A stretch of DNA of 64,000 nucleotides from an uncultured Methanosarcinales archaeon (GTDB lineage Archaea; Nanobdellota; Nanobdellia; Woesearchaeales; CAYSVS01), in assembly GCA_964434475.1 (NCBI GenBank), contig CAYSVS010000001.1, forward strand, positions 22,820 to 86,819, in the 5' to 3' direction. The stretch's first letter is position 1. Each line of letters begins with the position of its first letter. Positions 17,480-62,989 of the stretch are shown one piece after another. The notes below the pieces were generated by a model. It was not told the DNA's origin, made no database searches, and saw only the letters and a list, made by a program, of their open reading frames with translations. Both the position numbers and the translations under genes were made by a program.

Positions 17480-18784
17480 TTATTTCAAATGAATCTCAAC
17501 TATATCTTTATCCTTTAATGTATGGTTAAGATGCAGTATCTGTCCTGGAAACTTTGCACTAGGACCCCATATTTTCGCAAACTTGAACTTATTTACAAAA
17601 TCCTTGTGCAGCCTTTCACAGAAATCTTTTATCTTCGAATTGCGTTTCATTATCATGGGTTCTTTCATGTCTGGTTTCTTGGAAATCTCTTTTGTGTATA
17701 TTCTTATGAAATCAAGTTTTTTGAATATTACATCCTTAAGCTCTTCTGTTCCTAAACTCTGGTTTGCTGCTATGCATATATCTGGCTTAATCTCTTTCTT
17801 AAGCTTTTTTAATGTTTTCTCGTTTACCATATCCATTTTATTGAGGACAGTAATGCCTGGAATGTAGCTTTTGTTTTTTTCTATGATATCTATCAACTGA
17901 TCTGCTGTAATGTTTGTTCTTATAACAACCTGTGCATTGGCTATCTTAAATTCCCTTAATATTGCTTTGATCATCTCTTGATTTAAGTGCGTTAATTTTA
18001 CTGTGCTGCCTATATCTATGCCGCCTTTTTCTACTTTTTTAATGGTTACATCTGGTTTTTTTTGGTTTACCCTTATATGGGTATCATATACTTCTTTTTG
18101 TATTATTTCATAGTGGTGCGGGCGTGTAGCGTCAACCAAAAATAATATCAAATCAGCATTTTGCATTACAGATAAAACTTCTTTACCTCTACCAGTTCCT
18201 ACTGCAGCACCTTGGACAATTCCTGGAACATCTAATATCTGTATCTTTGCGTCTTTGTATTCCATAAGCCCTGGAACAACATCTAAAGTAGTAAACTCAT
18301 AAGATCCTACTTCTGAATTTGCATTTGTCAATTCATTCAATAAAGTGGATTTACCTACAGAAGGAAAACCAATCAAAATAACAGAAGCGTCTCCAGATTT
18401 CCTTACAGTATAACCTTCGCCTTTCTTGCTTTTTGATGTTTTAGCTGCTAATTTTTGTTTTAGTTTTGCTACTTGTGCTTTATACATGCCTATGGCGTGC
18501 TGGGTTTTTTTATTGTATTTTGTAGTTGATATTCTTTTCTCTAATTCTTTGATCTGTTCTAATGTTTTTTCTCTGGAACTTTTGTCTTCAGAAGATTCTA
18601 TCTTGACAGGCTTGACCTTTACTTTTTCTTTTTTTGCGGCTGCTTTTGCTTCCTGTAGTTCTTCTCTTTCTCTTTTTAATCTTTTTATGTCTAGTTCGTC
18701 GTCTTCATCTTGATCAGAGTATTGATTCTGCTTTTTCTTTCTTGCAAGCAGCTTCTTCTTTTTCTTGGTCATCCTTATTTTCAT
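17480..18784 (-). CDS. DRG-family GTPase (Obg-like, C-terminal TGS domain) with a ~110-aa K/E-rich N-terminal extension
   Basis: ILIGFPSVGKSTLLN, DVPGIVQGA and NKMD-type motifs typical of developmentally regulated GTP-binding proteins. C-terminal TGS-like segment. Confidence 0.8.
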   Translation of the reverse strand: MKIRMTKKKKKLLARKKKQNQYSDQDEDDELDIKRLKREREELQEAKAAAKKEKVKVKPVKIESSEDKSSREKTLEQIKELEKRISTTKYNKKTQHAIGMYKAQVAKLKQKLAAKTSKSKKGEGYTVRKSGDASVILIGFPSVGKSTLLNELTNANSEVGSYEFTTLDVVPGLMEYKDAKIQILDVPGIVQGAAVGTGRGKEVLSVMQNADLILFLVDATRPHHYEIIQKEVYDTHIRVNQKKPDVTIKKVEKGGIDIGSTVKLTHLNQEMIKAILREFKIANAQVVIRTNITADQLIDIIEKNKSYIPGITVLNKMDMVNEKTLKKLKKEIKPDICIAANQSLGTEELKDVIFKKLDFIRIYTKEISKKPDMKEPMIMKRNSKIKDFCERLHKDFVNKFKFAKIWGPSAKFPGQILHLNHTLKDKDIVEIHLK

Positions 18785-19827: not shown

Positions 19828-19828
19828 T

Positions 19829-20805: not shown

Positions 20806-20828
20806 AATTATTTCACCTTAAATAAATA

Positions 20829-20903: not shown

Positions 20904-20990
20904 ATATAGTATACTGTGAAATTTTTGAAGTATATTTAAAGGTTACGGTATTTACGAAGTTTTATAAATAATTGTATTTTTTGTTATATT

Positions 20991-23146: not shown

Positions 23147-23211
23147 CCTTTTTATGCGTAAAGTTTAAATATTCCCTGATTTTTAAGATTGAAAACAGTG
23201 GAGGATTTTAA

Positions 23212-23424: not shown

Positions 23425-23540
23425 CATTTCTTGAACAAATCAAGACATACGAAATGTAAGAAATAAGCTATTTTATCAAAACTTTTATAAATAAACTATT
23501 TTTTCGTTAGTTTAAAAGAAAGGTATTAGGTGAGTAAATT

Positions 23541-23939
23541 ATGGCTGGAACACAACCAAAAAGTATAGGATCATTACAAAAAGGAAATTTTGTTATTATT
23601 GATGATGTAGCTTGCAAGGTTACAGATACACAAACTTCAAGACCTGGAAAACATGGTCACGCGAAAGTAAGGCTTACTGGTGCAGGCTTGATAGATGATA
23701 AGAAAAGGGTCATTGTTATGCCAGGGCATGATAATATTGATGTTCCTATTATAGATAAAAAGACCGCTCAAGTGTTAAGTATAACAGGCGATAAAGCAAA
23801 TGTTATGGATGCGGAATCCTACGAGACATTTGATATTGATATACCTCCTGAACTTAAGGATCAGGTTGTTGAAGGATGTAATGTGTTGTACTGGGAAATA
23901 CTTGATGATAAAGTGATGAAACAAGTAAAGAGTGAATAA
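23541..23939 (+). CDS. eif5a: Translation initiation factor 5A (aIF5A)
   Basis: SRPGKHGHAKVRLTGAGLIDDKK hypusination loop (GKHGHAK). 132 aa. Confidence 0.85.
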   Translation: MAGTQPKSIGSLQKGNFVIIDDVACKVTDTQTSRPGKHGHAKVRLTGAGLIDDKKRVIVMPGHDNIDVPIIDKKTAQVLSITGDKANVMDAESYETFDIDIPPELKDQVVEGCNVLYWEILDDKVMKQVKSE

Positions 23940-23986
23940 ATTATGAAAATTAAAAACATTTTCAAAATTAAAACGAGGATTTAACC

Positions 23987-24148
23987 ATGGCAAAATTCGC
24001 AGAAGCTACAAAAAGGCTGTTTTCAAATATATTTGTGTGCAGGAAATGCAAGACTAAGATGCGTGCACCTAACTTGAAAGTATTAGCTGGCAAAGTAAAG
24101 TGCAGAAACTGTAATAGCAGAATACTTAGACCTGTCAGAAAAAAATGA
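23987..24148 (+). CDS. rpl40e: Ribosomal protein L40e (53 aa, absent from the ORF track)
   Basis: Hand translation gives MAKFAEATKRLFSNIFVCRKCKTKMRAPNLKVLAGKVKCRNCNSRILRPVRKK, an L40e-type C4 zinc ribbon. Its TGA overlaps the downstream ATG. Confidence 0.7.
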   Translation: MAKFAEATKRLFSNIFVCRKCKTKMRAPNLKVLAGKVKCRNCNSRILRPVRKK

Positions 24149-25299: not shown

Positions 25300-25301
25300 A
25301 G

Positions 25302-25988
25302 ATGATTTCTATCATTTTACTTGAACCAGAACATCCTGGTAATATTGGAGCAATTGCAAGGGTGATGGCTAATTTTGATTTTGATAAATTGGTCATAGTC
25401 AATCCTAAATGCGATCCAAGATGTGAAGAAGCTATAAACAGAAGTAAACATGGAAAGCATGTTCTTGAAAAAGCCAAGGTATTGAAAAGAATACCTAAAC
25501 AGGATTATCTTATTGCAACGACAGCTAAACTCGGAACAGATTACAATTTAAGAAGAACTCCTCTTACTCCTGAACAATCTGCTGATAAACTGGCAATAGT
25601 TAAGAATAGAAAAGTAGGTGTGCTTATAGGAAGAGAAAGCTACGGATTATTTAACGAAGAGATAGAAAAATGCGATTTTGTCGTAACAATACCTGCTAGT
25701 AAGAAATATTCAACATTAAACATAAGCCATAGTGTTGCTGTTATAGTTTATGAATTGCATAAGAAACTTGGCAAAAGAAAATCAAATGCAAAAATAACTC
25801 CAATATCTTATGCAGAAAAAAAACAGATAAATAAGATGTTTAATCATATTTTTAAAAAACTAGATTGGAAGACAAAAGAAAAGAAACAAACACAACAAAC
25901 ATTGTGGAAAAGGATAATGGGCAAGGCAATGCTAAGCAAAAGGGAAGCATACGCTGTTATGGGTTTTCTAAGAAAGTTAATTAAATGA
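25302..25988 (+). CDS. SPOUT (SpoU/TrmH-class) RNA 2'-O-methyltransferase
   Basis: ISIILLEPEHPGNIGAIARVMANFDFDKLVIVNP and ...NISHSVAVIVYEL motifs of SpoU methyltransferases. K-rich C-terminal tail. Confidence 0.65.
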   Translation: MISIILLEPEHPGNIGAIARVMANFDFDKLVIVNPKCDPRCEEAINRSKHGKHVLEKAKVLKRIPKQDYLIATTAKLGTDYNLRRTPLTPEQSADKLAIVKNRKVGVLIGRESYGLFNEEIEKCDFVVTIPASKKYSTLNISHSVAVIVYELHKKLGKRKSNAKITPISYAEKKQINKMFNHIFKKLDWKTKEKKQTQQTLWKRIMGKAMLSKREAYAVMGFLRKLIK

Positions 25989-25995
25989 TTTTAAT

Positions 25996-26991
25996 TTACA
26001 GATGATGTCCTTTTTCGTATATTTCTAATAATGTTATAAATACTATAAGTATTAAAGGTCCTATAAACAAGCCTACTATTCCCATATAAATCAATCCGCC
26101 TAATGCACCTAAAAGTATAATTAATGGATTTATTTTTGTAGCTTCTCCTACGATGTTTGGTTTAAGTATATTATCTATAGTTCCTATAATGAAGATTCCT
26201 ATCATCATTATGCTGGTTCCTATTATATATTCACCTATCATAAAATGGTAGATAGCTACAGGCAGCCAGACTAAAGGAGCTCCTATCAAAGGCAGTAAAG
26301 AGAGTACAAACATCACGAATCCCCAGAATACTGGTGAAGGCACCCCGAACATATAGAACATGAATCCTCCTATAAAACCTTGAATCATAGCTACTATTAT
26401 TGTTCCATATAATGTTGCAAAGATTAATTTATGTAATTTATCCATTATTTTAGATTTCTTCTTTGTTTTCATCGGAAATATCTTTTCAGTTTTTTTCACT
26501 ATTTCTGGTCCGAACATCAAGAAATAATATAATGCGAAAAACAATATCAATAGGTTGAGCATAGTTGTTGATATGACGCCTAAAATGTTCCGTGTATTTT
26601 TTATGATAGTTTCTGATGCGCTTTGCAATCCAGAAGCCAGATATTCTGATATGTCTATCTCATGTCCTTTTATTTCTAAATCAGTTCTGAATATCTTGTC
26701 TTTTTCTAGCTTTGAATAAACTTGTGTAGTTTCTTTGACCAATGAGTTTAGTAATATTGCTGAAGGTATTATAACTACCAGGATAATTATGATGACTGAT
26801 AAGAATGCAGATATTTTTTTATTTTTTATTTTTTTATTTATCAGCAGATACATAGGTCTAAAGATAAGTGCTAATATGGCTGAAAAAAGCAACGCAACAA
26901 AGAATGGTTTTAATATGTGGAAACTTAAGAATGCGACTAGCATGAATATGAATACAAACATATATTTACTGATTATATCTTTTTTTGGCAT
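25996..26991 (-). CDS. AI-2E family transporter (PerM/UPF0118)
   Basis: 331 aa, ~8 TM, with the C-terminal GLIYMGIVGLFIGPLILIV signature region. Confidence 0.6.
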   Translation of the reverse strand: MPKKDIISKYMFVFIFMLVAFLSFHILKPFFVALLFSAILALIFRPMYLLINKKIKNKKISAFLSVIIIILVVIIPSAILLNSLVKETTQVYSKLEKDKIFRTDLEIKGHEIDISEYLASGLQSASETIIKNTRNILGVISTTMLNLLILFFALYYFLMFGPEIVKKTEKIFPMKTKKKSKIMDKLHKLIFATLYGTIIVAMIQGFIGGFMFYMFGVPSPVFWGFVMFVLSLLPLIGAPLVWLPVAIYHFMIGEYIIGTSIMMIGIFIIGTIDNILKPNIVGEATKINPLIILLGALGGLIYMGIVGLFIGPLILIVFITLLEIYEKGHHL

Positions 26992-27030
26992 TAGCCATTA
27001 CCTCTTTTTTATTGTAGATAAAATTAATTC

Positions 27031-27366
27031 TTATTTATTAAGTTTTTCTTTTATTTTTTCTAGATGGACTTTTACTCTTTTATCTCCTTTTGGATGAGCT
27101 TTAGGACCTAAACCATAGTATGTTTTTTTCGCGCTTGGACCCCATGAATAATTTCCGCTTACATCTTTTATTTCTGAAATGATGAACTCTTCTGTTTCAA
27201 TACCTTTTTTCAGATGATAGTATATAGAACGCATAGTTGCTGCAGGATAAATTTCTCTGTATATCTTGTATACATCATAGCCCGTGCCTTTGCCAATAAC
27301 ATTTAGGATTTCTACGATTGCCTGTCTTATCTCGCTGCCTAAAGGTCTTCCTTTGAGTTTTATCAT
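27031..27366 (-). CDS. Small winged-helix-like putative DNA-binding protein
   Basis: 111 aa with an RQAIVEILNVIGKGTGYDVYKIYREIY helix-turn-helix-like segment. Weak call. Confidence 0.3.
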   Translation of the reverse strand: MIKLKGRPLGSEIRQAIVEILNVIGKGTGYDVYKIYREIYPAATMRSIYYHLKKGIETEEFIISEIKDVSGNYSWGPSAKKTYYGLGPKAHPKGDKRVKVHLEKIKEKLNK

Positions 27367-27422
27367 ATGCTATTATGTTGGTGTTAACATTTATATACTT
27401 TTTGTTTATATTGAAAATAAAT

Positions 27423-28394
27423 ATGAAATATTTATTTGTATTATCTAAAGAAGATATTGGTATTGCAAAAGAAGAAGTGCTTGCTTTGGTTAGTTGTATA
27501 GACAATAAGTTGATAGATAATTATCTTATATTAAATAGGAAAATAAAGATAAGCAATAATATTCTGAAAAGATTAGCGTATACGAAAAAAGTATATAGGG
27601 TCTTGTTTATTCCTAAATCAAAAAAGGATTACGACAATTTTGACTGGCAGAGATATTATAAGAATAGTTTTTCTGTCAGAGCTTATGGAGAATTAAGAAA
27701 AAAAGAGCAAGATTTTGCGAATTTAATATACTACAGATTATCTGATCCTTTAGTAGATCTAAAAGATGCAAAAACAAAGTTTGGTTTCTATAAAATAAAG
27801 AATAAAATATACGTGTGTAAATTGTTGAATGAGAATGATGAAGATTTCCAGTCAAGAAGAAGCCATCTAAGGCCTAAATCATCTGGAACAAGTATGCATC
27901 CTAAATTAGCAAGAGCCTGTGTTAATCTGACAGGCATCAAAAGAGGATATCTTGTAGATTGTTTCTGTGGAAACGGAGGTATATTGATAGAAGCAGGCTT
28001 GATGTGTTTAAGTCCTATAGGATATGATATTGATGATACAAGCATAAAAAAGGCAAAGATAAATCTTGATCATTATAAGATAAGATTTTATAAGCTTTTA
28101 AAGAAAGATGCTGTTGAACTAAAAAGAACAATAAGATATTTAGCTACTGATATGCCTTATGGAAAAAGCAGCAAAATGAGTGATGAATTGGATAAGTTAT
28201 ATTCTGGTTTTTTTAATAATTTGAGACATATCTTGCAAAAAAAAGCAGTAGTCATATTTCCTCATTATGTTGATCATAAAAAATATTTGAAGGATTTTAA
28301 TATAGTTGATGTCTTCAGGAAATATATTCATAAGAGTTTAACTAAAGTTATTGTTATTATAGAGCCAAAAAGAAAGAGGACTATTTTCAAATAA
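27423..28394 (+). CDS. tRNA (guanine-N2) methyltransferase (Trm-G10/Trm11-like, THUMP-type N-terminus)
   Basis: LVDCFCGNGGILIEAG SAM motif and a DMPYG (D/NPPY-type) motif. Start is probably the ATG at 27423 (MKYLFVLSKE); the track opens at 27375. Confidence 0.6.
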   Translation: MKYLFVLSKEDIGIAKEEVLALVSCIDNKLIDNYLILNRKIKISNNILKRLAYTKKVYRVLFIPKSKKDYDNFDWQRYYKNSFSVRAYGELRKKEQDFANLIYYRLSDPLVDLKDAKTKFGFYKIKNKIYVCKLLNENDEDFQSRRSHLRPKSSGTSMHPKLARACVNLTGIKRGYLVDCFCGNGGILIEAGLMCLSPIGYDIDDTSIKKAKINLDHYKIRFYKLLKKDAVELKRTIRYLATDMPYGKSSKMSDELDKLYSGFFNNLRHILQKKAVVIFPHYVDHKKYLKDFNIVDVFRKYIHKSLTKVIVIIEPKRKRTIFK

Positions 28395-28441
28395 TAACAA
28401 AATATTTTAAAGCAAGTGATATTTTATGTTCTAAAAACGGG

Positions 28442-28786
28442 GTGATTTTAATGTTAGTGAATTTATTGAATGCGATTTTTGCAATAATGGGAGGATATAT
28501 TGCAATAACTTATTTGTTTCCTATGCTGAAAGATTTTTTGGCAGGAGCGATAAAGGACAAGGTAAGCTTAGAAGGATTGATGGGTGTACTTAATCTATAT
28601 GTTATAGTGTTTGTTCTTGCTGCAGTTGTTAAGGAATTGGTAGCTATTAATAACCAATATCTTAATTATGTGAATGTATTATCTCCTGCATTGATTGTGA
28701 TGGTTGATCTGATACCTTATCTTAAATATCTAGTATTAGGTGTTTTAGTAATAATAGGTATTAACTCATTCAAGAAGAAAAGATAA
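28442..28786 (+). CDS. Small membrane protein (3 TM)
   Basis: Hydrophobic 114-aa ORF. Confidence 0.3.
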   Translation: MILMLVNLLNAIFAIMGGYIAITYLFPMLKDFLAGAIKDKVSLEGLMGVLNLYVIVFVLAAVVKELVAINNQYLNYVNVLSPALIVMVDLIPYLKYLVLGVLVIIGINSFKKKR

Positions 28787-28789
28787 TTG

Positions 28790-29134
28790 TTAAAAGACAA
28801 TCTTGTCTTTTATTTTTGTTTTACTTTTTTTTATTTTTCCTTGAGGAAGTTCAATAACATATTTAGCTTTTATTTTTGGATTTATAGTGGTAAAAGGTTT
28901 GAAGTTCTCTTTTAGAAAAATTATTTCTTTATCTTTATTCAGCCATAATACGTCTATAGGATAAAAGACAAAGAACATATGTAAAGGAATATTCTGTTCT
29001 TTATTGAATCTGAAAATATATCCTGTGTCTTTGATCTTTTTTGAAAACATCAAGCCTATAGTTTTGGAGAATGCACTGTTAAGCATTATTTTTTTCTTTG
29101 TTAATGTGGTATTTTTAAAACTGTTTTTTATCAT
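28790..29134 (-). CDS. DUF192-family protein
   Basis: 114 aa. GLMF...MFFVFYPIDVLWLNKDKEII...AKYVIELPQGKIKK resembles the DUF192/COG1430 family. Confidence 0.5.
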   Translation of the reverse strand: MIKNSFKNTTLTKKKIMLNSAFSKTIGLMFSKKIKDTGYIFRFNKEQNIPLHMFFVFYPIDVLWLNKDKEIIFLKENFKPFTTINPKIKAKYVIELPQGKIKKSKTKIKDKIVF

Positions 29135-29287
29135 TAAATAAAAAATAAAAGGAAAAGTATTTAAATTAGTTTATTTTCTAATGTTAGAAAGTAATGTGGA
29201 TTCATTGCTATGACTAGGGGTGGGAGTAGCTTGAGGGAGCTATTAGCATCGTAGTGAATTCTTGAAATTAAAAGAGGGAGAGAATAT

Positions 29288-32200
29288 TTGAGGGGAAAGA
29301 GAGGATTTAGTAGAGTAAGATTATTGTTGTTAGTTTTTGTTATTTTAGCTATGTCTTCTTATGCTTTGCCTTCTTTTATATCTATCTGGGATGATACTGA
29401 TCTAGGTAAAGTTATGTATCCTTATAATATGACTTATTTCTATGCTAATTATACTAATTCAACTGGGGACGTAATAACGGGCATGACTCCAGTTTGTAAC
29501 ATAACCATTATAAATACAGAAGGTCCAGGTATAGCGGGTCCTATCCCTATGCAGTATAATGCTGTATCTTTTTTATATGAATACAATAACACTTTTGATG
29601 ATGAAGGTTTGATGTTTGGACCAGGCATACATGATTGGAACGTTAGTTGTGCTTATGATCTTTATGATTATAATTCTAGCTCAGATACTGTAAATATTTC
29701 AGGAGATATGGATGAGATTTTCATAGAAAAATACGCCTTAAATGGAACGGTGTATGAAGATGAGATTGTTACATTCATCCTGAATGTAACGAATTTTGGC
29801 ATGGAAAATTATACAGACTTGTTTTTGGTTGATGAGTTCAACATCAGTTATCTAAATTTTAGTGCATCTACAACTTACCCTGTAAATATTATTCCTGAAG
29901 TTAACTATACTTCTGGAGAAGTTGAATGGATGCTTAATTTAAGCGTAGGCCATTCTTTTGTTGCATTAGTGAATTTCACAGCACTTCAAACAGGCAACAC
30001 AACAAACTATGTTTATGTTAAAAACGATACAGAATATTTTGGAGGAGATTTTGAGGAGATTGAAATCTTGTGGGAAGAAGAGCTTTGTAATCTTGATTTT
30101 AGCAATGTTTCATGCATTTCAAGAGAACCTTGGTGTTCCTGGAATGAAGACTATTGGAATCCTTTTACCCAAGAAGATGGATATTGTATGCCTAATTGTT
30201 CTTTGTTGACAGTAGAGGATTGTCAAGATTATCCTTATGAATGCAATTGGAACGGAAGCAGTTGTAATGATCTAGATTGTTATAGTATAGGCATTGAATC
30301 AGAATGTGGCCAGTATGATCAATGTTATTGGGATTTTGAAGAAAGTGATTGCGATCCTAATTGCACCTACTTTAACTATGATAATCCTGAGTTTAATGAG
30401 TCAAGCGACAATATATTTGAGAATGCAAGTATTTGGTGTATGAAAGCTGATTGCGATTGGAATGGAAGCTATTGTATTGAAGATGAAGAAGAGATAAATA
30501 TTTCTGTAAATAAAATTTTGTTGGACTCCAACATCTATCCTGGAGATACTGTTCAGTTTATGATAAACATAACCAATGTTGGAGATAGTGGCTTGGTTAA
30601 TATCTGGGGTTATGATGACTATAATGATACTTTTATGAATTTTACAGGCATAAGCTGCGGATATATGGCTCATGGTTCAAGATGGGTGCAGATTAATTTT
30701 ACTCAATGTGTTGGTGGTGGTTTGCCACCAGGAGAATCTGTTGCTGCATATATTAACTTTACTGCATTAGAATCAGGCAGTACTTTTAACAATGTCAGCG
30801 TTAATGCAACAGATTTTGATATGAATAATATACTTGAATCTGACCAGATAGATTTCGGGATCTTGGGCGGAGAAGAAGGAAGCGAAGCACCTTGTAATAT
30901 TGAGAATGAAACACAGTGTTTTATGAGAAGCGAGTGTATCTGGGATGACATGATGCATAATCCTTTAACTGATAGCAATGGTTATTGTCAGACCAATTGT
31001 TCTTTGTTGACAGTAGAGGATTGTCAAGATTATCCTTATGAATGCAATTGGAACGGAAGCAGTTGTAATGATCTAGATTGTTATAGTATAGGCATTGAAT
31101 CAGAATGTGGCCAGTATGATCAATGTTATTGGGATTTTGAAGAAAGTGATTGCGATCCTAATTGCACCTACTTTAACTATGATAATCCTGAGTTTAATGA
31201 GTCAAGCGACAATATATTTGAGAATGCAAGTATTTGGTGTATGAAAGCTGATTGCGATTGGAATGGAAGCTATTGTATTGAAGATGAAGAAGAGATAAAT
31301 ATTTCTGTAAATAAAATTTTGTTGGACTCCAACATCTATCCTGGAGATACTGTTCAGTTTATGATAAACATAACCAATGTTGGAGATAGTGGCTTGGTTA
31401 ATATCTGGGGTTATGATGACTATAATGATACTTTTATGAATTTTACAGGCATAAGCTGCGGATATATGGCTCATGGTTCAAGATGGGTGCAGATTAATTT
31501 TACTCAATGTGTTGGTGGTGGTTTGCCACCAGGAGAATCTGTTGCTGCATATATTAACTTTACTGCATTAGAATCAGGCAGTACTTTTAACAATGTCAGC
31601 GTTAATGCAACAGATTTTGATATGAATAATATACTTGAATCTGACCAGATAGATTTCGCAATCTTGGGTGGAGAAGAAGATGAAGATAATGTAACTATAA
31701 ACAAGACAGTTATAACCCCGAGTGTTGAAGACGGAAGTATAGCATCATTTATGATAACAGTTAATAACAACGAACCATATAATATTACAAATTATGAAGT
31801 ATATGATTTCTTCAATACTAGTATGATCAATTATACTGCTGCAAGTTATACGCCCGAGGATATTAATTATACTATGGGTAGAGTTATCTGGGTAATCAAT
31901 AATCTTGAGAATTACAGCTCTTTTTCATTCAATGTGAATTTTTCAACATTTATAGAAGGAAATACTACAAATTATGTTGTCCTGAAGAACAGCACAGGAA
32001 ATCATGTTGCGGATGATAACGCAAGTTTAGAGATAACCTTATTTGAGGAAGAAGATGAAGGAATGTATGATTTTGGAGATGCGCCTGACTCTTGCAACCA
32101 TTTCGGAACAGATATGGAGACAGATCCTAGTATGTTTACCAGCGATATAATTGCAAATTATCCTACAGTACATAACATAACCTTAAAAGATAATTGCGGA

Positions 32201-44571: not shown

Positions 44572-45219
44572 ATGAGAATAAGATCTATTTTTTGTTTGAT
44601 ATTAATTTTTTTTATTTCTGTACTGCCTTGTTTAGCTGAACCTTTGGGTGTTTTTGGATATGTTAAGGATATAGAGGGCAATCCTGTTGGCTGTATAGAT
44701 ATGGCTTTCACTGATCTGTCTGAAGATTATACAGGTCATCCTATATCTGGAAAAACTAATTGCGGCGGAATGTATGTTGGAAAATACGCAGTATTTTTTT
44801 ATGAGATAGATGGAGCCAAGGGAAATGATGTGATAGAGATAAAGTTAGATTATGCAGGCAACATCTTCATAGAAAAATTTAATCTTGACGGAAATGAACA
44901 CAATATTACTCTGGATCTTGTTGGTGTTGTTAAAGAATCTGATGGTGAGATTGTTGATTTGATTCCTGTTCCTGCACTTTTTTTGGATGATAAAGATATT
45001 TTACAGGATAAAGATGAAAAAGAATCTATGAAAAAAAATATAAAAGATGCTGTTATTTCAGTTACTGAAAATAAGACAGATAATAATTTAGAAATATCTA
45101 ATAATTATGAAAATATAAATAAAGAACAAGATGTAGGTTATTGTTTAAATATAAAATATTTTATTTTGTTTGGATTTATTTTTTTGATATTATTTTTTTC
45201 TTATAGAAAATTATCTTAG
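44572..45219 (+). CDS. Small secreted protein with C-terminal TM anchor (carboxypeptidase-regulatory-like beta-sandwich motif)
   Basis: Signal peptide MRIRSIFCLILIFFISVLPCLA, GYVKDIEGNPVGCIDMAF (CarboxypepD_reg-like), and a C-terminal hydrophobic YFILFGFIFLILFFSYRKLS. AAGGAAG SD before the ATG. Confidence 0.5.
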   Translation: MRIRSIFCLILIFFISVLPCLAEPLGVFGYVKDIEGNPVGCIDMAFTDLSEDYTGHPISGKTNCGGMYVGKYAVFFYEIDGAKGNDVIEIKLDYAGNIFIEKFNLDGNEHNITLDLVGVVKESDGEIVDLIPVPALFLDDKDILQDKDEKESMKKNIKDAVISVTENKTDNNLEISNNYENINKEQDVGYCLNIKYFILFGFIFLILFFSYRKLS

Positions 45220-45343
45220 TTACTTATATCGGGCTGATATATTATCGATAAAAAGACATACAACAAATAACAACATTTATAAATGGTACGCGATTTAATC
45301 TTTATTTAATAATGTTAAAACATTATAAAGGGAGGGTTTGAAT

Positions 45344-48300
45344 ATGAGGAAAGCAATATTATTATTTACTATGTTAATTTTAAGTTCTGTTTTAGTTTCA
45401 GCAGTACCTATCAACTATGATGGATATGTCAAAAGTCCGATAGGAATAGGAATACCGACAATGAATGTTTCTGTATATAATACTGCTGCAGGATATTCTG
45501 GTACAAGACAGCAATGGAAAGTTACAAGTGCGAATCCTGCATCATTAGGTAGATTTACTGGTTCGTATATGACCGATGATGGTGCAACAAATGCAGATAT
45601 TATAAGAATTTATTCATATAATGAATCTAATCTTGCTTTGGGTTATGCTTTCCTTTTAACAAACTTAGCTAATGTGACTTCATCAAATCATGGAAATCTT
45701 ACAATAAACAGATCCTTTTACCCTCTATTCACTAATGTAGCTTCTCCTCAGAATGATACAGAATATGCGACACAAAATATAAATTTTACATTTACAGTAC
45801 AAGACGATGTTACAGAAGATTTTGAAGAAGATATGTCTTGCGCATTTTATCTTGGTTATGGTACTTCTCCTTCCTTAAACACAACAAATACGACTGTTGA
45901 TTCTGGCGATACTGTGACTTTTGTAAAAACAGCCCTTTTGGATGGAGGATACAATTGGTATATTAACTGTACTAACAATAGATCTGTATCAAATGTAACT
46001 TCAGTCTATGAGTTTGATATAGATACAAAAGCGCCAAGATATGACCAGATACAGGTAAGTGGTTCAATCGTAAATATTTCCGACAACGTAAATATCTGGG
46101 CAAATTGGACAGATACATTCCTCGATTCAGCAGTATTGATAGTTAATGATACAGATAATGAGACTAAGGATATTTCTATGTCAGATATGAATTGGAACCT
46201 GACAAATTTTACATTTACACCTGCTTCAAGCTTTGTCAAACAAAACATTACTTTCAATATAAGGGCAAATGATACTTTAGGTAATTTAAATACTACAACA
46301 AACGCTTATGTCTATTTTAGAGATGATGTTAAGCCTGATGTTGTTCTCATAAATCCTGCAAATCAAAGCTCTAAATCAAGCACGAGTATAACTTTCAACT
46401 ATAGCTATTCAGATAATGTCGCAGGTAATCTAAATTGCTCCTTATACTTAGATATGGGATATAATGAATCTCAAACAGTTGCTGCAACTACTACAATGCA
46501 ATATGGTGCATTTGCAAAAACAGTAGAAGATAATGACGATCACGAATGGTATGTTGTCTGTGTTGATAGTGATGGAAATTCGAATATAACACCAACCAAT
46601 GAATTCACTGTTGACAGCAGCGCTCCTATAGTGAATCTAAACGAGACACAATCATCAACTGTTAACCAAGGTGATAAAATCCATTACTGGGCAAACTGGA
46701 CATATGGAATAAATCAGATTGATGTTGCAATTTTATATGTTAATGGTCAAATGGCGAATATGACCTATTCAGTAGGTTCAAATAATTTAGTCAATCTATC
46801 ATATACAACTAATAATAACCAGGCAGGTTCAACCTTATCATTGTATATGTGGGTGAATGATACTGCTGGATTAGAAGCAAATTCAGGAATCATCACTGTT
46901 GGCGTTAATGACACTATTGCGCCGAGTGTTGTTCCAAATCTACCTATAGATAATTACAATACTTCTTCATTGACAATGAATTGGTCAGCGATAGTTACAG
47001 ACAACAATGTCGCGCCCAATATTAGTTGTAATATAAGTGTAGCAGGAAATATTAATCATATAGGTTCAGGTTTTACAAACGGTTCGATTGTATCCACAGG
47101 TGATCAAACTGTTCCGACAGGAGTTAATCTTTGGAACTTTACATGCTGGGATCAAGCAGGCAATACTGCAACATCAGCTACAAGAACATTGAATGTTGAT
47201 AGACAAGCGTCGCTTGTATTTGCTCAAGGTTATAATGATTCAACAGTTGGATTAACTAAATCTATATTGGTTTATGCGAATGTAACTGATAATTTTTTAG
47301 GTATAAAGAACGTAAGCATAAAATATGGTTCAAATGCACCTGTTGCGATGACTCCAACAGGAGATACTTATAGCGTTGCAACAACTGCTGGTGCTTTGGG
47401 TATAAGTACAACAGACAACCATTCTGTTACAATAATAGCATATGATACTGTTAATAATGTAAATAATACAGAAGTTATCTATATCGATGTTGATGCAAGC
47501 ATGCCTATAGTACATACAGTTTTAGCAAATGAAACTTATGTAAAAAGCACAGACCTTATCAATTTTTCAGCATTTGTCAATGATACGTCTTTGGTAAGCG
47601 TCACCTTGAACGGAACAAATATGACTGGTGATATGGTAAACGGTGGAATATTTTATACGATAAACTCAACATCTGATTTCGGATGTGAAGATATTGAAGG
47701 AACATGCACATTCTTTGTTTCAGCATCAGATACAGTAGGAAATGTAAATGATACAGAGAGTGTTACTGTAACTGTTGATGATATAGCACCAAGAGTTACA
47801 AGTTTTTCAGTTGTTGATGCTGATAATATGGTTATGAACACCACTTCAGTAGTTGTAAGAGCCAACATAACAGATGCAAGTGTTGCTAGTGTTACAGTAA
47901 ACGGAACAGCGATGAGCCAATCAGGAGATTATTATCAAGTTACAACGACTATGGCGGCTTTAGGCTGCGCTCCAGACGGAGAATGTACTCTAGGCATCAC
48001 GGCAACTGATGCAGCTGGAAACATTAATTCAACAGAAACTACTACTATAACAGTTGATACAACAGCTCCAACAATGAATTTAACATATCCAGGAAATAAT
48101 ACTTGGAGAAAGGTGACAACACCAAAATTGAATTACTCATTTGTTGATGCATATAGTGATAATGCAAGCTGTACTTTATCCATAAACTCAGTAGATTTCA
48201 CTAGTACAGTTAACAATGATACTCAAAAACAAGTATATGTAACAGGTGCTAGCTTATCAAGCGGTTCAACATATACTTGGACAGTGGCTTGTACAGATTT

Positions 48301-50602
48301 AGCAGGAAATGTTGGAACCAGCTCAAGAGTAATCAAGATAGATACAGTAAAGCCAAGCACAACATTGACATATAATAATACTGATGCAGAAACAACTTGG
48401 GTTAATACTCCTGTAAATATCACTATAACAGCAACAGATGTAAATTCAGGTGTCAATTATACACAATGGAGAAATTCAACATCCGGCTCATGGATAACTG
48501 TTGAAGGAAGCTTTGTATTGTCAAACAATTTGACTGACAATATTATATATTATAGGTCAGTTGACAATGCGACAAACACTGAGACAATCAAACAGAAAGA
48601 TTTCTACTATGATGGAACAGCTCCTGTTGCGCCTTCGATAACATTAAGCTCAGATACTGTGGGATTGGGCGGAAGTGTTGTAGTTGATGTAACTAGTTCA
48701 GATCTTTTGTCAGGATTAGCTTCAACAGCTGATTATGAGATAAATGGTTCAACTGGAACTTTAGATTATTCGAACGGAAAATATTCTGGAACAGTAACAG
48801 CTCCAGCAATAGCAGGAACATATAATTTGACAATCACAGTAAGTGATGAAGCAGGAAATACTGTAAGTGATGCAAATTCTCAGATAACTACAAACGGTAC
48901 AGTAGCTTCAATCAGTGTAAATAAGGCTAATGGAACTGTTGTAGAAAGCGGAAGCACAGTTACGATTACTATCGATGGCGATAATGCAACCGGTTGGTAT
49001 AATTATACTGGTGGATCAGAAACGAATATTTCTGGAACTTCAGCATCAGTTACAATATCTGGCACAGGATTGTTTAATCTGTATGTGTATGCGAACAATA
49101 CAGCAGGATTGGTAAATCAAAACTATACTTATGTTATTGATGCAGATGCGCCTTTAACAACTGTTACAGCTCCTACAGCAGGTTCAGAGATTAACGCAAC
49201 AGATACAATAACAGCAACAGCAGACGATCAAACTGGAATTGGTGTTGAAAATGTTGTTTTCACTGTAACTAAAGTAGGAAGCACAACTGCTTATAAAACA
49301 TTTACAGATACAACATCGCCATATACATTTACATTAGATACTTTTGCAGCAAAAGACGGTAATTATAGTATAGAAGCTGTAGCAACAGACTACTTTAGCA
49401 ATAGCAATACATCAACAATCTATGTGGTGATAAATAACACAGGAGTATCGACTACAACAAATGCAGACGCATCTGGTGAGGTTGATTTTTCAGCAACAGA
49501 TTTTGCTACAGTATTGGATGTGATTACAGGATTGAATGATAGTGTTAATGTAGTGGTTTCAGTTCCACAAAGTGTTGCTAATGCTCCAAGTACAACGACG
49601 CAATTAGAGGAAACAATACACACTTTAAATATCACAACAGATACGCCAGCAACATCAAGAGTTTATTTTACTATTTTGACAACTACATTGGATGATTTGA
49701 GCATAACTTCTCCATACTCTAATCTGTATGTTTATGTAGATCATGGAAGTGGAGTAGAAGAAATAGGTGCAGCAACATTTGTTGATACAGTAACAAAGAA
49801 CGGTAATGAGTATAAGAGATTCTATTTTGAAACCGATGAATACAGTACATTTTTCATAGGTAAGAAAGCTGTAGTGGTACAAGAAGATGATGAAGAAACT
49901 TCAACCACTGGCGGAACAACAGGCGGGTTAAGCACACTATCAACAGCAAAAGGAATATCTGTGACTCATATGTGGAATGTTATCAAGCCTTCTATTCCAA
50001 GTTCGATGAGTATAACAAACGATGATATAGCATTCAGGAAAGTTGTATTCACTGTAACTGAAGAATCTCAAAATGTAAGGATGGAGATAACATCTTTGGC
50101 AGAAAAGCCAGAAACAACTGTTGAGATTATTGAACCTGTATTCCAGTATCTTGAAGTTGATACTACTAACCTTGATGATGTCAATATCAAATCAGCAAAG
50201 ATAAGCTTTGAGATCAAGAAATCGTGGTTGAACGGTAACAATAAAGAAAGCGTAAGGCTTTTAAGGTTCAGTGATGGCAAGTGGAATGAACTGACTACAG
50301 AATTGACCAATGAAGATGGCACTTATGTTTATTATGAAGCAACTACGCCTGGTTTCAGCTATTTTGCGATAGTGTCTAAAAAGATAGCAGAAGAGCCTGT
50401 AGAGACTGTGCCAACAGAAGAAGTTGAAGAAGAGGTTGAGGTTGAAGAGGAAGAAGAAGCTGCTCCTGAAACCAAGCCAATCGAAGCTCCTGTAACAGAA
50501 GAAGGAATGAAAGGCTGGTTTATAGTGATTGTGTTGGTTGTAATCGGTGTAGCAGCTTATTATTGGTACAACAAGCCAAAGAAAAGGAAGAATAAAAAAT
50601 AG
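45344..50602 (+). CDS. Large T/N-rich secreted surface protein (about 1752 aa) with C-terminal TM anchor and basic tail
   Basis: The probable start is the ATG at 45344, 8 nt after an AGGGAGGG SD; the track opens at 45338. Signal peptide MRKAILLFTMLILSSVLVSAVP. Many Ig/fibronectin-like T-rich repeats with dense sequons. Acidic linker, then GWFIVIVLVVIGVAAYYWYNKPKKRKNKK at the C-terminus. A PGFSYFAIV motif lies ~60 aa before the TM. Confidence 0.8.
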   Translation: MRKAILLFTMLILSSVLVSAVPINYDGYVKSPIGIGIPTMNVSVYNTAAGYSGTRQQWKVTSANPASLGRFTGSYMTDDGATNADIIRIYSYNESNLALGYAFLLTNLANVTSSNHGNLTINRSFYPLFTNVASPQNDTEYATQNINFTFTVQDDVTEDFEEDMSCAFYLGYGTSPSLNTTNTTVDSGDTVTFVKTALLDGGYNWYINCTNNRSVSNVTSVYEFDIDTKAPRYDQIQVSGSIVNISDNVNIWANWTDTFLDSAVLIVNDTDNETKDISMSDMNWNLTNFTFTPASSFVKQNITFNIRANDTLGNLNTTTNAYVYFRDDVKPDVVLINPANQSSKSSTSITFNYSYSDNVAGNLNCSLYLDMGYNESQTVAATTTMQYGAFAKTVEDNDDHEWYVVCVDSDGNSNITPTNEFTVDSSAPIVNLNETQSSTVNQGDKIHYWANWTYGINQIDVAILYVNGQMANMTYSVGSNNLVNLSYTTNNNQAGSTLSLYMWVNDTAGLEANSGIITVGVNDTIAPSVVPNLPIDNYNTSSLTMNWSAIVTDNNVAPNISCNISVAGNINHIGSGFTNGSIVSTGDQTVPTGVNLWNFTCWDQAGNTATSATRTLNVDRQASLVFAQGYNDSTVGLTKSILVYANVTDNFLGIKNVSIKYGSNAPVAMTPTGDTYSVATTAGALGISTTDNHSVTIIAYDTVNNVNNTEVIYIDVDASMPIVHTVLANETYVKSTDLINFSAFVNDTSLVSVTLNGTNMTGDMVNGGIFYTINSTSDFGCEDIEGTCTFFVSASDTVGNVNDTESVTVTVDDIAPRVTSFSVVDADNMVMNTTSVVVRANITDASVASVTVNGTAMSQSGDYYQVTTTMAALGCAPDGECTLGITATDAAGNINSTETTTITVDTTAPTMNLTYPGNNTWRKVTTPKLNYSFVDAYSDNASCTLSINSVDFTSTVNNDTQKQVYVTGASLSSGSTYTWTVACTDLAGNVGTSSRVIKIDTVKPSTTLTYNNTDAETTWVNTPVNITITATDVNSGVNYTQWRNSTSGSWITVEGSFVLSNNLTDNIIYYRSVDNATNTETIKQKDFYYDGTAPVAPSITLSSDTVGLGGSVVVDVTSSDLLSGLASTADYEINGSTGTLDYSNGKYSGTVTAPAIAGTYNLTITVSDEAGNTVSDANSQITTNGTVASISVNKANGTVVESGSTVTITIDGDNATGWYNYTGGSETNISGTSASVTISGTGLFNLYVYANNTAGLVNQNYTYVIDADAPLTTVTAPTAGSEINATDTITATADDQTGIGVENVVFTVTKVGSTTAYKTFTDTTSPYTFTLDTFAAKDGNYSIEAVATDYFSNSNTSTIYVVINNTGVSTTTNADASGEVDFSATDFATVLDVITGLNDSVNVVVSVPQSVANAPSTTTQLEETIHTLNITTDTPATSRVYFTILTTTLDDLSITSPYSNLYVYVDHGSGVEEIGAATFVDTVTKNGNEYKRFYFETDEYSTFFIGKKAVVVQEDDEETSTTGGTTGGLSTLSTAKGISVTHMWNVIKPSIPSSMSITNDDIAFRKVVFTVTEESQNVRMEITSLAEKPETTVEIIEPVFQYLEVDTTNLDDVNIKSAKISFEIKKSWLNGNNKESVRLLRFSDGKWNELTTELTNEDGTYVYYEATTPGFSYFAIVSKKIAEEPVETVPTEEVEEEVEVEEEEEAAPETKPIEAPVTEEGMKGWFIVIVLVVIGVAAYYWYNKPKKRKNKK

Positions 50603-52212: not shown

Positions 52213-53142
52213 TTATTCAGTCAATCCTTCGCAATCATAGATAGATATATGTTCTTGGTCAAGTCTGAACCATATAGGTAATCCTTGTATATTGTAGTAT
52301 TTAGGGTTTAGATCAGAGAAATATATGTAATCTACCACTGACTTTTCTTCAATATTTATGTTATTATTTACAAGATTCTCAATATTCACTAGGCTTTCTA
52401 TCCCCTTATCATTTGCAGTTGTTTTTCCTTCTAACCTGTCAAGATAGCTTGGCCCTAAATCTGATGCTATGTAGTGTTGGCTTAGTGTATGATTCAATAG
52501 TTTTTCTGTTTTGTTATTTTCAATAAAATTGGAGTATGGGCTTTTTTTGATTATATTTGGAACTTTGCCTAACGTATTAATAGAGTATAAAGGATCTTCT
52601 AATCCTTTTATGCTTATTTTGCTTTTGATTGTTTTATTGTATCTGAATTCTGCAATATCACTTTTGTCTTTTAATTCTATATCTGCTTTTAATCTTATTT
52701 CAACGAACCAAGGATCGGTTTGATATATATCTATAGAGATTATGCTTATATTTGAGATAATATTCATATAATCTGCTTTTTCTTTTACTTTGTTAAGCCA
52801 TAGTGCTAGATTGGTATTGTTCATCATCCGAGATTCTTGCCCGTCTAATGTGCTGTTTATGAACAGTTCTTTAAAATCTTTATTGACATTGTCACTGAAT
52901 TCTCTTTTTTCTACTATGTTATCTGTTATTGATGTTAATGCTCTTGAACCTATTATTTCAGATGCTCTTTCTATGTCTCTTTCGAAATCTTCAATAAAGT
53001 AGTTCATTGTATTGACTCTTTTTTTGATAAGATCTCTATCTTTATCTTTTTCTTCGTTTAATGTAAAAGCTGTTAGCAGGAGTGAAACCAGTAAAATTGT
53101 GCTTACTGTAAAAAACATTGCTTTTTTATTTTTTAATGCCAT
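52213..53142 (-). CDS. Pilin-like protein (309 aa) with type IV pilin-type N-terminus
   Basis: N-terminus MALKNKKAMFFTVSTILLVSLLLTAF (basic residues then a hydrophobic helix). Last gene of the minus-strand pilin operon. Confidence 0.5.
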   Translation of the reverse strand: MALKNKKAMFFTVSTILLVSLLLTAFTLNEEKDKDRDLIKKRVNTMNYFIEDFERDIERASEIIGSRALTSITDNIVEKREFSDNVNKDFKELFINSTLDGQESRMMNNTNLALWLNKVKEKADYMNIISNISIISIDIYQTDPWFVEIRLKADIELKDKSDIAEFRYNKTIKSKISIKGLEDPLYSINTLGKVPNIIKKSPYSNFIENNKTEKLLNHTLSQHYIASDLGPSYLDRLEGKTTANDKGIESLVNIENLVNNNINIEEKSVVDYIYFSDLNPKYYNIQGLPIWFRLDQEHISIYDCEGLTE

Positions 53143-59157: not shown

Positions 59158-60053
59158 ACAGATTAAATTTTTTTCTTTTGCCTGAAAGGATATTGAAAAG
59201 GTTTAGTCATTTATTTTTAGGCATAAGTGAAAAGATAGAAGGAAGCTTCAATTCTCTTGAACTGGACCTTAAACAATCAGAAATAAGGATAAATAAGATA
59301 GATTATATCTCTTATTCTCTTGCTTCGTCTTTTATCTTGTTTATCTTGTTGTTTTTGCTTTTTGCAGGATTGTTTGAATATTTTGGGCATAAGAATTATA
59401 TCTTTCTTTCTGTATTATCTTCCTTTTTTCTGATATTTCTTAATTTTTTAAGGATATTGAACTATCCTAGATTCATCACAAACAGAAGAGTGAAAAATAT
59501 TGAAAAGGATTTGTTGATAGTGTTGAGAAATATGTATGTGCAGGTAAAGTCCAACATACCTTTGTTCACTGTGATGGTAAATGTGGCGGGACAGGATTTT
59601 GGAGAGGTAAGCAAGGAATTCAAACGTATGGTAAAACAGATAAACTCAGGCATTTCTGAAGTAAAAGCTTTAGAGGAATCAGCTACAAACACACCTTCTG
59701 CTTTTTTCAGGACAGTATTATGGCAGATAATAAATGGGGTAAAGACAGGGGCAGATATATCTGTTGTTTTGAAAGATCTTATAGAGATGCTTTCAGGAGA
59801 ACAGGTTGATCAGATACAGGAATATGGAGCTTCGCTTAATTCACTTGCTTTATTTTATATGCTTTTAGTGATAATAATGCCTTCTTTAGCGATAACCTTT
59901 TTGATAGCTTCATCAGTATTTTTTTCAAAAGCGATTGTCACGACAAAAGCCTTGTTTTGGCTCTTGTATGTTCTGGTTGTTCTGTTCCAGATAATATTTT
60001 TAGGTATAATAAAATCAAAAAGACCTAGTTTGTTGAGGGATGAAAATGTATGA
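59154..60053 (+). CDS. TadB/GspF-like pilus platform membrane protein (single T2SSF-like domain)
   Basis: 299 aa polytopic membrane protein with a soluble helical insert between TM segments. Translationally coupled to the ATPase and to the next gene. Confidence 0.5.
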   Translation: MNRLNFFLLPERILKRFSHLFLGISEKIEGSFNSLELDLKQSEIRINKIDYISYSLASSFILFILLFLLFAGLFEYFGHKNYIFLSVLSSFFLIFLNFLRILNYPRFITNRRVKNIEKDLLIVLRNMYVQVKSNIPLFTVMVNVAGQDFGEVSKEFKRMVKQINSGISEVKALEESATNTPSAFFRTVLWQIINGVKTGADISVVLKDLIEMLSGEQVDQIQEYGASLNSLALFYMLLVIIMPSLAITFLIASSVFFSKAIVTTKALFWLLYVLVVLFQIIFLGIIKSKRPSLLRDENV

Positions 60054-61005
60054 TTTCATAGGGAGACTGTTTCCTGTATCTGTAAGGAAGAATATAGGTC
60101 AATTGTTGATGTATTCTGATATTGATATAGATACAGAGAGATATATAGGTTTTACTTTTTTGTTTGATATAGCTTTAAGTATTGTAATTACATTATTTCT
60201 AGGACTGTTTTTCAAATTCAATATGCTTATTGTATCTTTATTGTTTTTTGTATTGTTCGATATGATAAGCTATTTTACGCTCCATTTCAAAGCACAGTCA
60301 AAGTCGAAGTTTATTGAATCTATACTTCCTGATGCTTTAAGGCTTACAGCAGGCAACCTTAAGGCAGGAATAACTACAGATAAAGCTTTGCTTTTAAGCG
60401 CCAGACCTGAGTTTGGGCCTTTTAAAAAAGAGTTAATAAGGGCTGGAAAAGAGATAGCTACAGGAAAAGAGATAACCAAGTCTTTGATGGATATAACACA
60501 AAGAGTGAGGTCAGTGAAACTGAAACATGTTATTGAGCTTATTGTTTCTGGATTAAAGACAGGAGGTCAATTAAGCGATCTGCTGCAGCAAACAGCAGAA
60601 GATCTTACAAGGCAGAAACTTATCGAAAGAAAGATAAGGACAAACGTAAAGCTTTATGTCATATTTATATCTATAGCTATAGCTTTTGCGTCTCCTGTTT
60701 TATATGCTTTAAGCACTTTCCTATTGGAAGTTATGGCTGCAAAATTAGCTGCTATAGATCCTAGCGTTTTTTCTTTGATACAGTTTAGCACAGGTAAGAT
60801 GCTGGAGATAAGCTTTGTTACACGATATATAGTTATATCTATAGCGACTACTGTCGTACTGGGTTCTCTTGTGCTTGGACAGATAAGTAAAGGAGATGAA
60901 AAACAAGGAATAAAGAAGATACCTTTCTTGATACTTATTTCTTATGTACTTTTTTTCGTTGTGCTCTTATTTTTGAGAAGAATATTCGGTATGTTCTTGA
61001 TATAA
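60040..61005 (+). CDS. TadC/GspF-like pilus platform membrane protein (second half of a split FlaJ/TadC)
   Basis: 321 aa polytopic membrane protein. Position and topology are consistent with the second T2SSF domain. Confidence 0.5.
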   Translation: MKMYDFIGRLFPVSVRKNIGQLLMYSDIDIDTERYIGFTFLFDIALSIVITLFLGLFFKFNMLIVSLLFFVLFDMISYFTLHFKAQSKSKFIESILPDALRLTAGNLKAGITTDKALLLSARPEFGPFKKELIRAGKEIATGKEITKSLMDITQRVRSVKLKHVIELIVSGLKTGGQLSDLLQQTAEDLTRQKLIERKIRTNVKLYVIFISIAIAFASPVLYALSTFLLEVMAAKLAAIDPSVFSLIQFSTGKMLEISFVTRYIVISIATTVVLGSLVLGQISKGDEKQGIKKIPFLILISYVLFFVVLLFLRRIFGMFLI

Positions 61006-61471: not shown

Positions 61472-62989
61472 ATGTGCGGGATAATAGGGGTAATTTCTAA
61501 AAATAATAGAGAAGATTTGGGATTTCTTATAGCAGAAGGATTGTCGCAGATACAAAACAGAGGAGATGATTCAGCAGGAATAGCTGCGATAAAAAAGTTA
61601 CCCTTATCTCGAAGAGAGTTTGAGATGTATAAGCGGATTGCTGTAGAACATGTTGCAGATGATTTTAATCCTATGACTATTGTTAGGGATAAAGGAAGAG
61701 TAAGAAAAGTTTTTAAGGTAAAATCAGATCTAGAAAGTTTGGCAGGATTTATGGGCATTGGCCAGGTAAGATATCCTACAACAGGATATATAAATGAAAA
61801 TAAATGTGAAAGTTATCAGCCCTTGCATCTTGGAAACAAGAAGATTGCAATCGTACATAATGGAGATGTTCATAATTATGATAAGATAATGTCTGGATTT
61901 CATGGTCTTAGAAGGGCATCAACGAATGATCTAGAAGCTATATTGAACATATTCGCTAAAGAATTTTTTACGACAGCTGATTTTCTTAAGAGAGAAGATA
62001 GGATAACTAAGTCAGTAAAGGCAACAATGGAAACTATAGAGGGTACTTATTGCGTCGCTTCAGTTGTCAATAACTATGGCATTGTTGTTTTTAGGGATTC
62101 TGAAGGAAGAAGACCTTTATTTTATGGTGTGAGGACAAAAGGAAAAGAGATTACTGATTATGCTTTTGCGTCTGAAACTGTTGCACTAGAAAAAATGCTT
62201 TTTAAAGGAACATCTTCTAAAGAATTAAATGGGAGGGCTATGTATGAAGAAGTAAATCCTGGAGAGATGATATTCATATCAAAAGATTTTGAAGTGTTTA
62301 GAAAACAGATCAAAGAACCTGAGACCAAATTTTGTCCATTTGAAGCTGTTTATTTTCAACGTGCTGCATCTTTTGTAAACGATAAACGAGTTAAACAGAT
62401 AAGGAAAGATATCATTAAGTATATGTGGGACAGGTTTAAGACAAAATCTTCAAAAAAATATGATTCTATTTTTAATGATAAAGAAGATTATGTTATTGTT
62501 CCTGTACCAAGGACAGCTGAATGTGCGGCTGTTGAACTTTCCTCTTACGCAGGAATAAAATATTCTACAGCAATCGAAAAGAATCCTTTCTCTGGAAGGA
62601 TATTTCAACAGCCAACAAAGGAGCATAGAGAGATTGGAACAATAAGCGACCATTTTATCTATGAAGAAGAGGTTAGAGGGAAAAATATAATACTTATAGA
62701 TGATTCTATTGTGCGAGGAACTACTATGATAAACGATATAAAATATCTTCGTGATCTGGGTGCAGATACAATAAACGTATTTATTACATTTCCTGCAATC
62801 AAACATCCATGCTACCATGCAATCGATTTTCATACTGAGCAAGAACTGTTGGCCCATGGAAACAGCATACATAAGATTAAAAATATTCTTGGATTAAGCA
62901 GTACTGACTCTTTGACATATGCGACACAGAATGAACTTGAAAAAGCAATTGGTACCAAATATTTATGTAATCAATGCTATAAAGTATAG
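61472..62989 (+). CDS. purF: Amidophosphoribosyltransferase-like protein (class II glutamine amidotransferase + PRTase; PurF family)
   Basis: N-terminal MCGIIGV nucleophile Cys and a PRPP-binding ILIDDSIVRGTTM motif. 505 aa with a divergent middle region. Confidence 0.65.
   Translation: MCGIIGVISKNNREDLGFLIAEGLSQIQNRGDDSAGIAAIKKLPLSRREFEMYKRIAVEHVADDFNPMTIVRDKGRVRKVFKVKSDLESLAGFMGIGQVRYPTTGYINENKCESYQPLHLGNKKIAIVHNGDVHNYDKIMSGFHGLRRASTNDLEAILNIFAKEFFTTADFLKREDRITKSVKATMETIEGTYCVASVVNNYGIVVFRDSEGRRPLFYGVRTKGKEITDYAFASETVALEKMLFKGTSSKELNGRAMYEEVNPGEMIFISKDFEVFRKQIKEPETKFCPFEAVYFQRAASFVNDKRVKQIRKDIIKYMWDRFKTKSSKKYDSIFNDKEDYVIVPVPRTAECAAVELSSYAGIKYSTAIEKNPFSGRIFQQPTKEHREIGTISDHFIYEEEVRGKNIILIDDSIVRGTTMINDIKYLRDLGADTINVFITFPAIKHPCYHAIDFHTEQELLAHGNSIHKIKNILGLSSTDSLTYATQNELEKAIGTKYLCNQCYKV

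Follow-up and report, generated by a model that had tools for sequence, protein, structure and literature searches.

Tandem repeats of microbial surface adhesins evolve in concert by intragenic recombination or gene conversion. Identical repeats are found, for instance, in the streptococcal alpha C/Rib proteins and in the staphylococcal proteins SasG/Aap and Bap. The template and variable repeats of diversity-generating retroelements (DGRs), which are common in DPANN archaea, are about 100-150 nt long and differ at adenines. Among giant surface proteins, those of the SPEARE type from nanohaloarchaea have 5,000-9,400 aa, carry a C-terminal VirB4/TraG-like ATPase domain, and are encoded next to a secretion ATPase gene (PMC10266531).

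The stretch of archaeal DNA analysed in this work (64,000 nt, hereafter the window) has a GC content of about 32% and encodes, among other proteins, aRF1, aIF5A and aIF2/5B. The aRF1 protein shares no more than 76% identity with proteins of Woesearchaeota/Nanoarchaeota MAGs. The host is therefore an uncultured, Woesearchaeota-like member of the DPANN archaea, and the GTDB representatives include no genome of its species. A giant protein is encoded by the largest ORF of the window, and two consecutive Cys-rich units near the N-terminus of this protein share a long perfect repeat. The features needed to follow the description are listed below (positions of the window).

1226-4384: AglB/STT3 oligosaccharyltransferase fused to a C-terminal PPIC-type peptidyl-prolyl isomerase, 1,052 aa
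29288..44566, plus strand: giant ORF, 5,092 aa, TTG start
30057..30193, plus strand: diverged left flank of unit 1, comprising the end of the preceding DUF11 linker and the first four Cys of module 1
30074..30874, plus strand: unit 1 (aa 263-529), composed of Cys-rich module 1, DUF11 and an ILGGE linker
30074-30490, plus strand: Cys-rich module 1 of unit 1, with 16 Cys
30194..30857, plus strand: copy 1 of the perfect 664-nt tract; its left end is at the fifth Cys of the 16-Cys module and its right end is the first base of the codon after DUF11
30401..30673, minus strand: antisense ORF of 90 aa in copy 1, whose twin in copy 2 is 31202..31474
30494-30856, plus strand: DUF11 domain of unit 1
30858..30994, plus strand: unique 137-nt spacer between the perfect copies, comprising the linker and the N-terminus of module 2
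30875..31675, plus strand: unit 2 (aa 530-796), composed of Cys-rich module 2, DUF11 and an ILGGE linker
30875-31291, plus strand: Cys-rich module 2 of unit 2
30995..31658, plus strand: copy 2 of the perfect 664-nt tract
31295-31657, plus strand: DUF11 domain of unit 2

The giant ORF is identical to a database protein (P0002, NCBI) that has been seen on a single contig of 87,274 bp. Its product starts with a Sec-type signal sequence, recognised by eye, and contains 258 N-x-S/T sequons. Pfam domains detected in the protein are about ten DUF11, GEVED, CarboxypepD_reg, two PPC domains, Inhibitor_I9 together with a Peptidase_S8 subtilase, and cadherin-like/Big_9 repeats; the N-terminal half alone scores 125.3 bits against DUF11 over six stretches. 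It is probably a secreted multidomain surface protein that is heavily N-glycosylated. The AglB/STT3 ORF, which is followed by glycosyltransferase genes, fits the high number of sequons.

Immediately downstream of the giant gene, 45338-50602 codes for a predicted surface protein of 1,754 aa with Big_13/Big_7 Ig-like domains, and 53133-55742 (minus strand) codes for another large predicted surface protein, of 869 aa, with a VWA domain. A T2SSE/T2SSF pilus-type pair is also present. Between a T2SSF-like gene (60040..61005) and an amidophosphoribosyltransferase-like gene (61472..62989) lies an intergenic tandem array (61162-61417) with a 42-bp unit, 6.1 copies and 90% matches. In addition, a direct pair of 150-nt sequences (17314-17462 and 52054-52203), 76% identical and separated by 35 kb, was detected. 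Each copy lies just beyond the 3' (low-coordinate) end of a minus-strand ORF (17480..18784 and 52213..53142, among ORFs of at least 150 aa). No Rfam family matches this pair at the gathering threshold; it could be a common downstream/regulatory element or a small RNA.

A base-by-base comparison shows that 30194-30857 and 30995-31658 are identical at every one of their 664 positions. The offset between both copies is 801 nt, that is, 267 codons, so that the reading frame is preserved, and both copies are in frame within the giant ORF. The same direct repeat was recovered by a repeat finder, by self-BLAST and in a map of repeated 31-mers. Since the longest exact repeats obtained in 20 shuffles of the window measured 15-20 nt, the repeat is far beyond chance and a chance origin was rejected. 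The next-best repeats of the window are 87-88% identical. A preliminary description of this DNA, based on the sequence, had reported a perfect duplication of about 670 bp at an 801-bp offset, spanning 30186-31657; the duplication is real, its coordinates being off by only a few bases.

At the protein level, residues 303-523 of the giant protein are identical to residues 570-790 (221 aa). When the preceding Asn and the trailing ILGGEE are included, 228 out of 229 residues are identical, with a single G/A difference. This agrees with the earlier statement that two consecutive Cys-rich units of about 267 aa are 100% identical over about 228 aa. The identical antisense ORFs, which had been regarded as a direct readout of the repeat, are both present with 90 aa each. 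They are mechanical by-products, mirror images of the repeat, and not genes.

Each unit of 267 aa consists of an acidic module of about 140 aa with 16 Cys, followed by a DUF11 domain (PF01345) of about 125 aa. The assignment to DUF11 is supported by the C-terminal 127 aa of the unit, which alone reach 31.1 bits (Pfam gathering cut-off, 24.6). Both units have the same orientation; their homology extends from end to end, and every Cys position is kept. By eye, the 16-Cys module falls into four sub-repeats with the pattern C-x5-6-C-x-W...C-x3-4-C. Neither a Pfam family nor a PDB chain matches it at E≤10, and a single-sequence AlphaFold model of unit 2 was unusable (pLDDT 33.6). Extracellular adhesion or stalk extension is the role that we infer for the units.

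The module is very rare. An exhaustive phmmer search among 1.84 billion representative proteins found it in only two proteins, since the three matches were the giant protein itself, a protein of 3,049 aa (P0003) and a spurious PKD-like match. P0003 is encoded in a contig (Ga0248667_100250, locus L083; 57.9 kb, 33% GC, close to that of the window) from the JGI metagenome 3300022699. It contains a single Cys module, at 12710-13126 of its locus, without a DUF11 after it, and all 16 Cys are invariant among this copy and the two copies of the window. Both proteins have in common the subtilase S8 (42% identity), a GEVED-like region (44%) and the N-terminal region, in a different order, the subtilase being first in P0003, which also carries long beta-helix arrays. 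The presence of a Cys-conserving module in such a rearranged context indicates that the module is a real and rare domain and that these proteins have a fluid architecture. The lack of a described family for this module is a small novelty. Directly after the P0003 gene, with a 4-nt overlap, an ORF of at least 2,478 aa (19147-26580 of that locus) runs off the contig end; it is rich in internal repeats that are 72-88% identical.

No other relatives were obtained. Neither the GTDB species genomes nor the JGI metagenome contigs, the latter searched with the single sequence or with a profile, contained relatives of the unit. A word-indexed search of 5.8 billion proteins gave one weak match (P0001), restricted to the DUF11 part, and a profile of the three modules found nothing in the same set. 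Among 80 Woesearchaeota/Nanoarchaeota loci around aRF1 (best identity, 76%), a syntenic giant gene with the unit is absent.

The identity between the units stops abruptly at its left side. The preliminary description had already noted that the first 40 or so residues of the units are diverged, and the comparison of 30057-30193 with 30858-30994 bears this out. Both segments are homologous, with 69 of 123 nt (about 56%) identical in the aligned codons and 16 of 41 aa (39%) in the protein; they contain one-residue indels and keep all four Cys. The spacer 30858..30994 encodes GILGGEEGSEAPCNIENETQCFMRSECIWDDMMHNPLTDSNGYCQT. At the 3' side of the 664-nt tract, 21 nt with 3 mismatches follow, and the homology then stops at the unit border. 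The repeat is thus a mosaic, with 0/664 differences in the tract and 54/123 nt in the adjoining aligned codons. The left step is located inside the Cys module, at its fifth Cys, where there is no domain boundary.

The units were also compared with P0003, a distant single-module protein and not an orthologue of the two-unit block. Outside the tract, the N-terminus of unit 2 is clearly closer to P0003 than to the N-terminus of unit 1. It is also nearer to P0003 than the N-terminus of unit 1 is, with 77% identity to the P0003 locus at the nucleotide level over 30890-31004. Inside the tract the units are identical to each other.

The perfect tract is also an outlier with respect to the rest of the gene. 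Other repeats in the giant gene are 72-88% identical at the nucleotide level, other DUF11 paralogues show 27-35% aa identity to the DUF11 of the unit, and the P0003 locus, which has many internal repeats, contains no repeat of more than 100 nt with an identity higher than 88% and no long perfect repeat. These values indicate that the identity of the tract is not the consequence of a general constraint.

Our preferred explanation, to which we assign a probability of about 70%, is that the 664-nt identity results from a recent conversion-type overwrite between two pre-existing units. Two old tandem paralogous units, each with a 16-Cys module and a DUF11, would already have been present near the N-terminus. 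A recent non-reciprocal homologous recombination between them, either intragenic gene conversion or an equivalent misaligned double crossover, would then have replaced at least 664 nt of one unit by the sequence of the other. Such an event would have erased all the differences, including the synonymous ones, from the fifth Cys to the end of DUF11, and would have left the first 40 or so codons of the units diverged. The absence of differences in 664 nt (221 codons) beside 41 homologous codons that are only 39% (aa) and 56% (nt) identical argues for a mosaic event, and the location of the tract borders within the Cys module, away from any domain edge, argues for an event at the DNA level rather than for the shuffling of modules. 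A pattern of this kind is the usual hallmark of gene conversion, or of a comparable homologous exchange, when two tandem paralogues already exist. Both the recombination mechanism and its recency are what we infer from this pattern.

Two further pairs of repeats in the giant gene are patchy and 87-88% identical: 35575-35847 with 37090-37362, which are non-adjacent DUF11 domains, and 42227-42582 with 42797-43153, which are cadherin-like repeats two units apart. Both pairs include perfect blocks of 33-86 nt. They may be older conversion tracts, and their presence suggests that exchange recurs in the giant gene. The DUF11 pair flanks a stretch of about 1.2 kb that looks beta-helix-like by eye.

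The origin of the second unit is a different matter. If applied to an older duplication, which would have preceded the overwrite, the earlier suggestion that modules expanded in a rapidly evolving surface protein is plausible. This is supported by the fact that the sole relative, P0003, has one module and a different architecture.

The sequence comes from one 87-kb contig that has been seen only once, and the way in which the repeat was assembled therefore has to be considered. Two contigs of the public Logan assembly match the window, both from the same run (SRR7048224). The first one (L001) is 100% identical to 22324-30223 of the window and ends exactly 30 nt inside the repeat; the second one (L082) is 100% identical to 42992-45465, and its start corresponds to the last 30 nt of another repeated block of the window (42971-43021). 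The Logan assembly uses k=31, with which the end positions of both contigs agree, 30 nt being k-1. The break of the first contig exactly k-1 nt inside the repeat indicates that the reads hold two different sequences entering it; in other words, the read graph branches at the left border of the tract.

There is a real, although minority, possibility that at least two related units exist and that a single collapsed repeat edge was traversed twice by the assembler. In that case, bubble popping would have removed some SNPs that distinguish the copies, or there would be at least three copies separated by identical spacers. A graph going from flank A to the repeat (R), the spacer, R again and flank B contains a loop, and the assembled sequence is the minimal traversal of it. 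The fact that the k=31 assembly of the same run stopped at the repeat, and that matching Logan contigs come from this one run only, also points in this direction. Thus, the 100% identity may hide a few collapsed differences, or the true array may be (R-spacer)n-R with n>1. However, such an effect would bear on how similar the copies are or on how many there are, and not on the existence of a tandem pair whose core is far more similar than its first 40 codons. Differences beyond a few percent would have kept the copies on separate edges over the 664 nt, and the window is contiguous across several other repeats at which the Logan assembly broke.

A stronger form of the assembly explanation, in which there is one true unit and the second was inserted by the assembler or scaffolder, for instance by stitching two strain variants in tandem, is unlikely and has only a slim chance of being correct. 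The contig derives from a metagenome, and perfect repeats are a classic warning sign of such errors. Against this, the 137-nt spacer is unique and opens with a paralogue of the post-DUF11 linker (GILGGEE in the spacer, AILGGEE after unit 2 and EILWEEE after the preceding DUF11), from which it runs into a complete, Cys-conserving N-terminus of the module. Because the linker paralogue is followed by a module N-terminus, the spacer must sit between the end of a DUF11 and the rest of a Cys module. Moreover, two different left flanks enter the repeat in the independent de Bruijn read assembly, and the junctions are in frame within an ORF of 5,092 codons. The alternative of an assembly artefact, which had been raised previously, is therefore weakened in its false-duplication form by the branch at the left edge and the paralogous spacer, and survives in the form of collapsed SNPs or a copy number above two. 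In any case, the copy number and the exact sequence of the deposited contig at this place depend on how the assembler resolved the repeat.

It is very unlikely that slippage or unequal crossing-over caused a simple and very recent duplication, in tandem, of one 801-bp unit where no second unit had existed before. The repeat is in tandem and in frame, its period is exactly 801 nt and its core has zero divergence, all of which such a duplication would explain. But it predicts 801 identical bases, and 137 positions of the period belong to homologous sequence that has diverged strongly and contains indels; these 137 nt per period are old paralogues, which contradicts a simple recent origin. No process of mutation would leave 664 nt untouched (0/664) next to a segment with about 44% changes, and the N-termini of the units relate differently to P0003, which means that both are old. 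From the previous proposal of a very recent duplication or gene conversion, only the second option, a very recent event at the DNA level, fits the data.

The idea that extremely strong purifying selection kept the copies identical, whether it acted on the protein or on a nucleic-acid element within the repeat, has a negligible probability: some constraint is expected in a coding, Cys-rich region, but all the synonymous sites of 221 codons are identical, which selection on the protein can not explain when the Cys-rich part is only about 50% identical to that of P0003 (48-54% for the module against this single relative), and with respect to an element, no Rfam family matches the region and the antisense ORFs merely mirror the repeat. 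A mobile element or an RNA gene within the repeat was also considered and rejected, given the in-frame coding, the match to the DUF11 HMM and the lack of Rfam matches.

If the conversion-type overwrite is real, the locus would provide a clean case, in an uncultured DPANN archaeon, of intragenic homogenisation that occurred recently. It would imply that homologous recombination shapes the giant surface proteins through which contact with host cells is presumed to take place, and it would mark a site where the giant gene can change its length. A broader reading, which we regard as rather doubtful, is that the two-unit block is a copy-number-variable and continually homogenised cassette of a DPANN host-attachment protein, whose array expands and contracts within populations by recombination between its identical cores and which is built around an undescribed extracellular 16-Cys domain known so far from only two public proteins. 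If this were true, the cassette would be an archaeal analogue of the repeat-number variation of bacterial adhesins.

With regard to the known systems, the likeness to a DGR repeat pair lies in the presence of near-identical repeats tied to a surface protein gene in a DPANN genome. In contrast to such a pair, the repeat described here has 664 nt without any difference, and both copies are in tandem within one ORF. No reverse-transcriptase family was found among the 21 ORFs of the window scanned with Pfam, the giant ORF included. A DGR origin was rejected for these two reasons, the 0 mismatches in 664 nt and the lack of a reverse transcriptase among the scanned ORFs.

The giant protein shares with the SPEARE-type proteins a length above 5,000 aa, a small-genome DPANN archaeon as producer, a signal sequence, long Ig-like/adhesion arrays and a presumed role in cell-cell contact. 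Unlike them, it contains Inhibitor_I9 and Peptidase_S8, PPC, GEVED and DUF11 domains. No Pfam match to a VirB4/TraG-like ATPase was found in the giant ORF or in the ORFs downstream of it, 44572..45219 and 45338..50602. Genes for a HerA/DUF87 ATPase (upstream) and a T2SSE ATPase (downstream) are each 13 kb away from the giant gene, so that neither is adjacent. By its length, host, signal sequence and domain content, the giant protein belongs to a loose class of giant DPANN surface proteins.

In function and mechanism, the locus resembles the bacterial adhesin repeats. As in these, the units are in tandem and in frame within an extracellular protein with Ig-like domains, and they do not differ in nucleotide sequence, not even at synonymous sites, with diverged paralogous sequence around them. 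The differences are that only two copies are present here, that the host is a DPANN archaeon, and that homogenisation extends over 83% of the unit, with its start inside a domain. The process is routine concerted evolution, ordinary for repeated surface-protein genes. Current understanding is thus not overturned by this locus, which provides a new instance of a well-known process together with an undescribed 16-Cys module.
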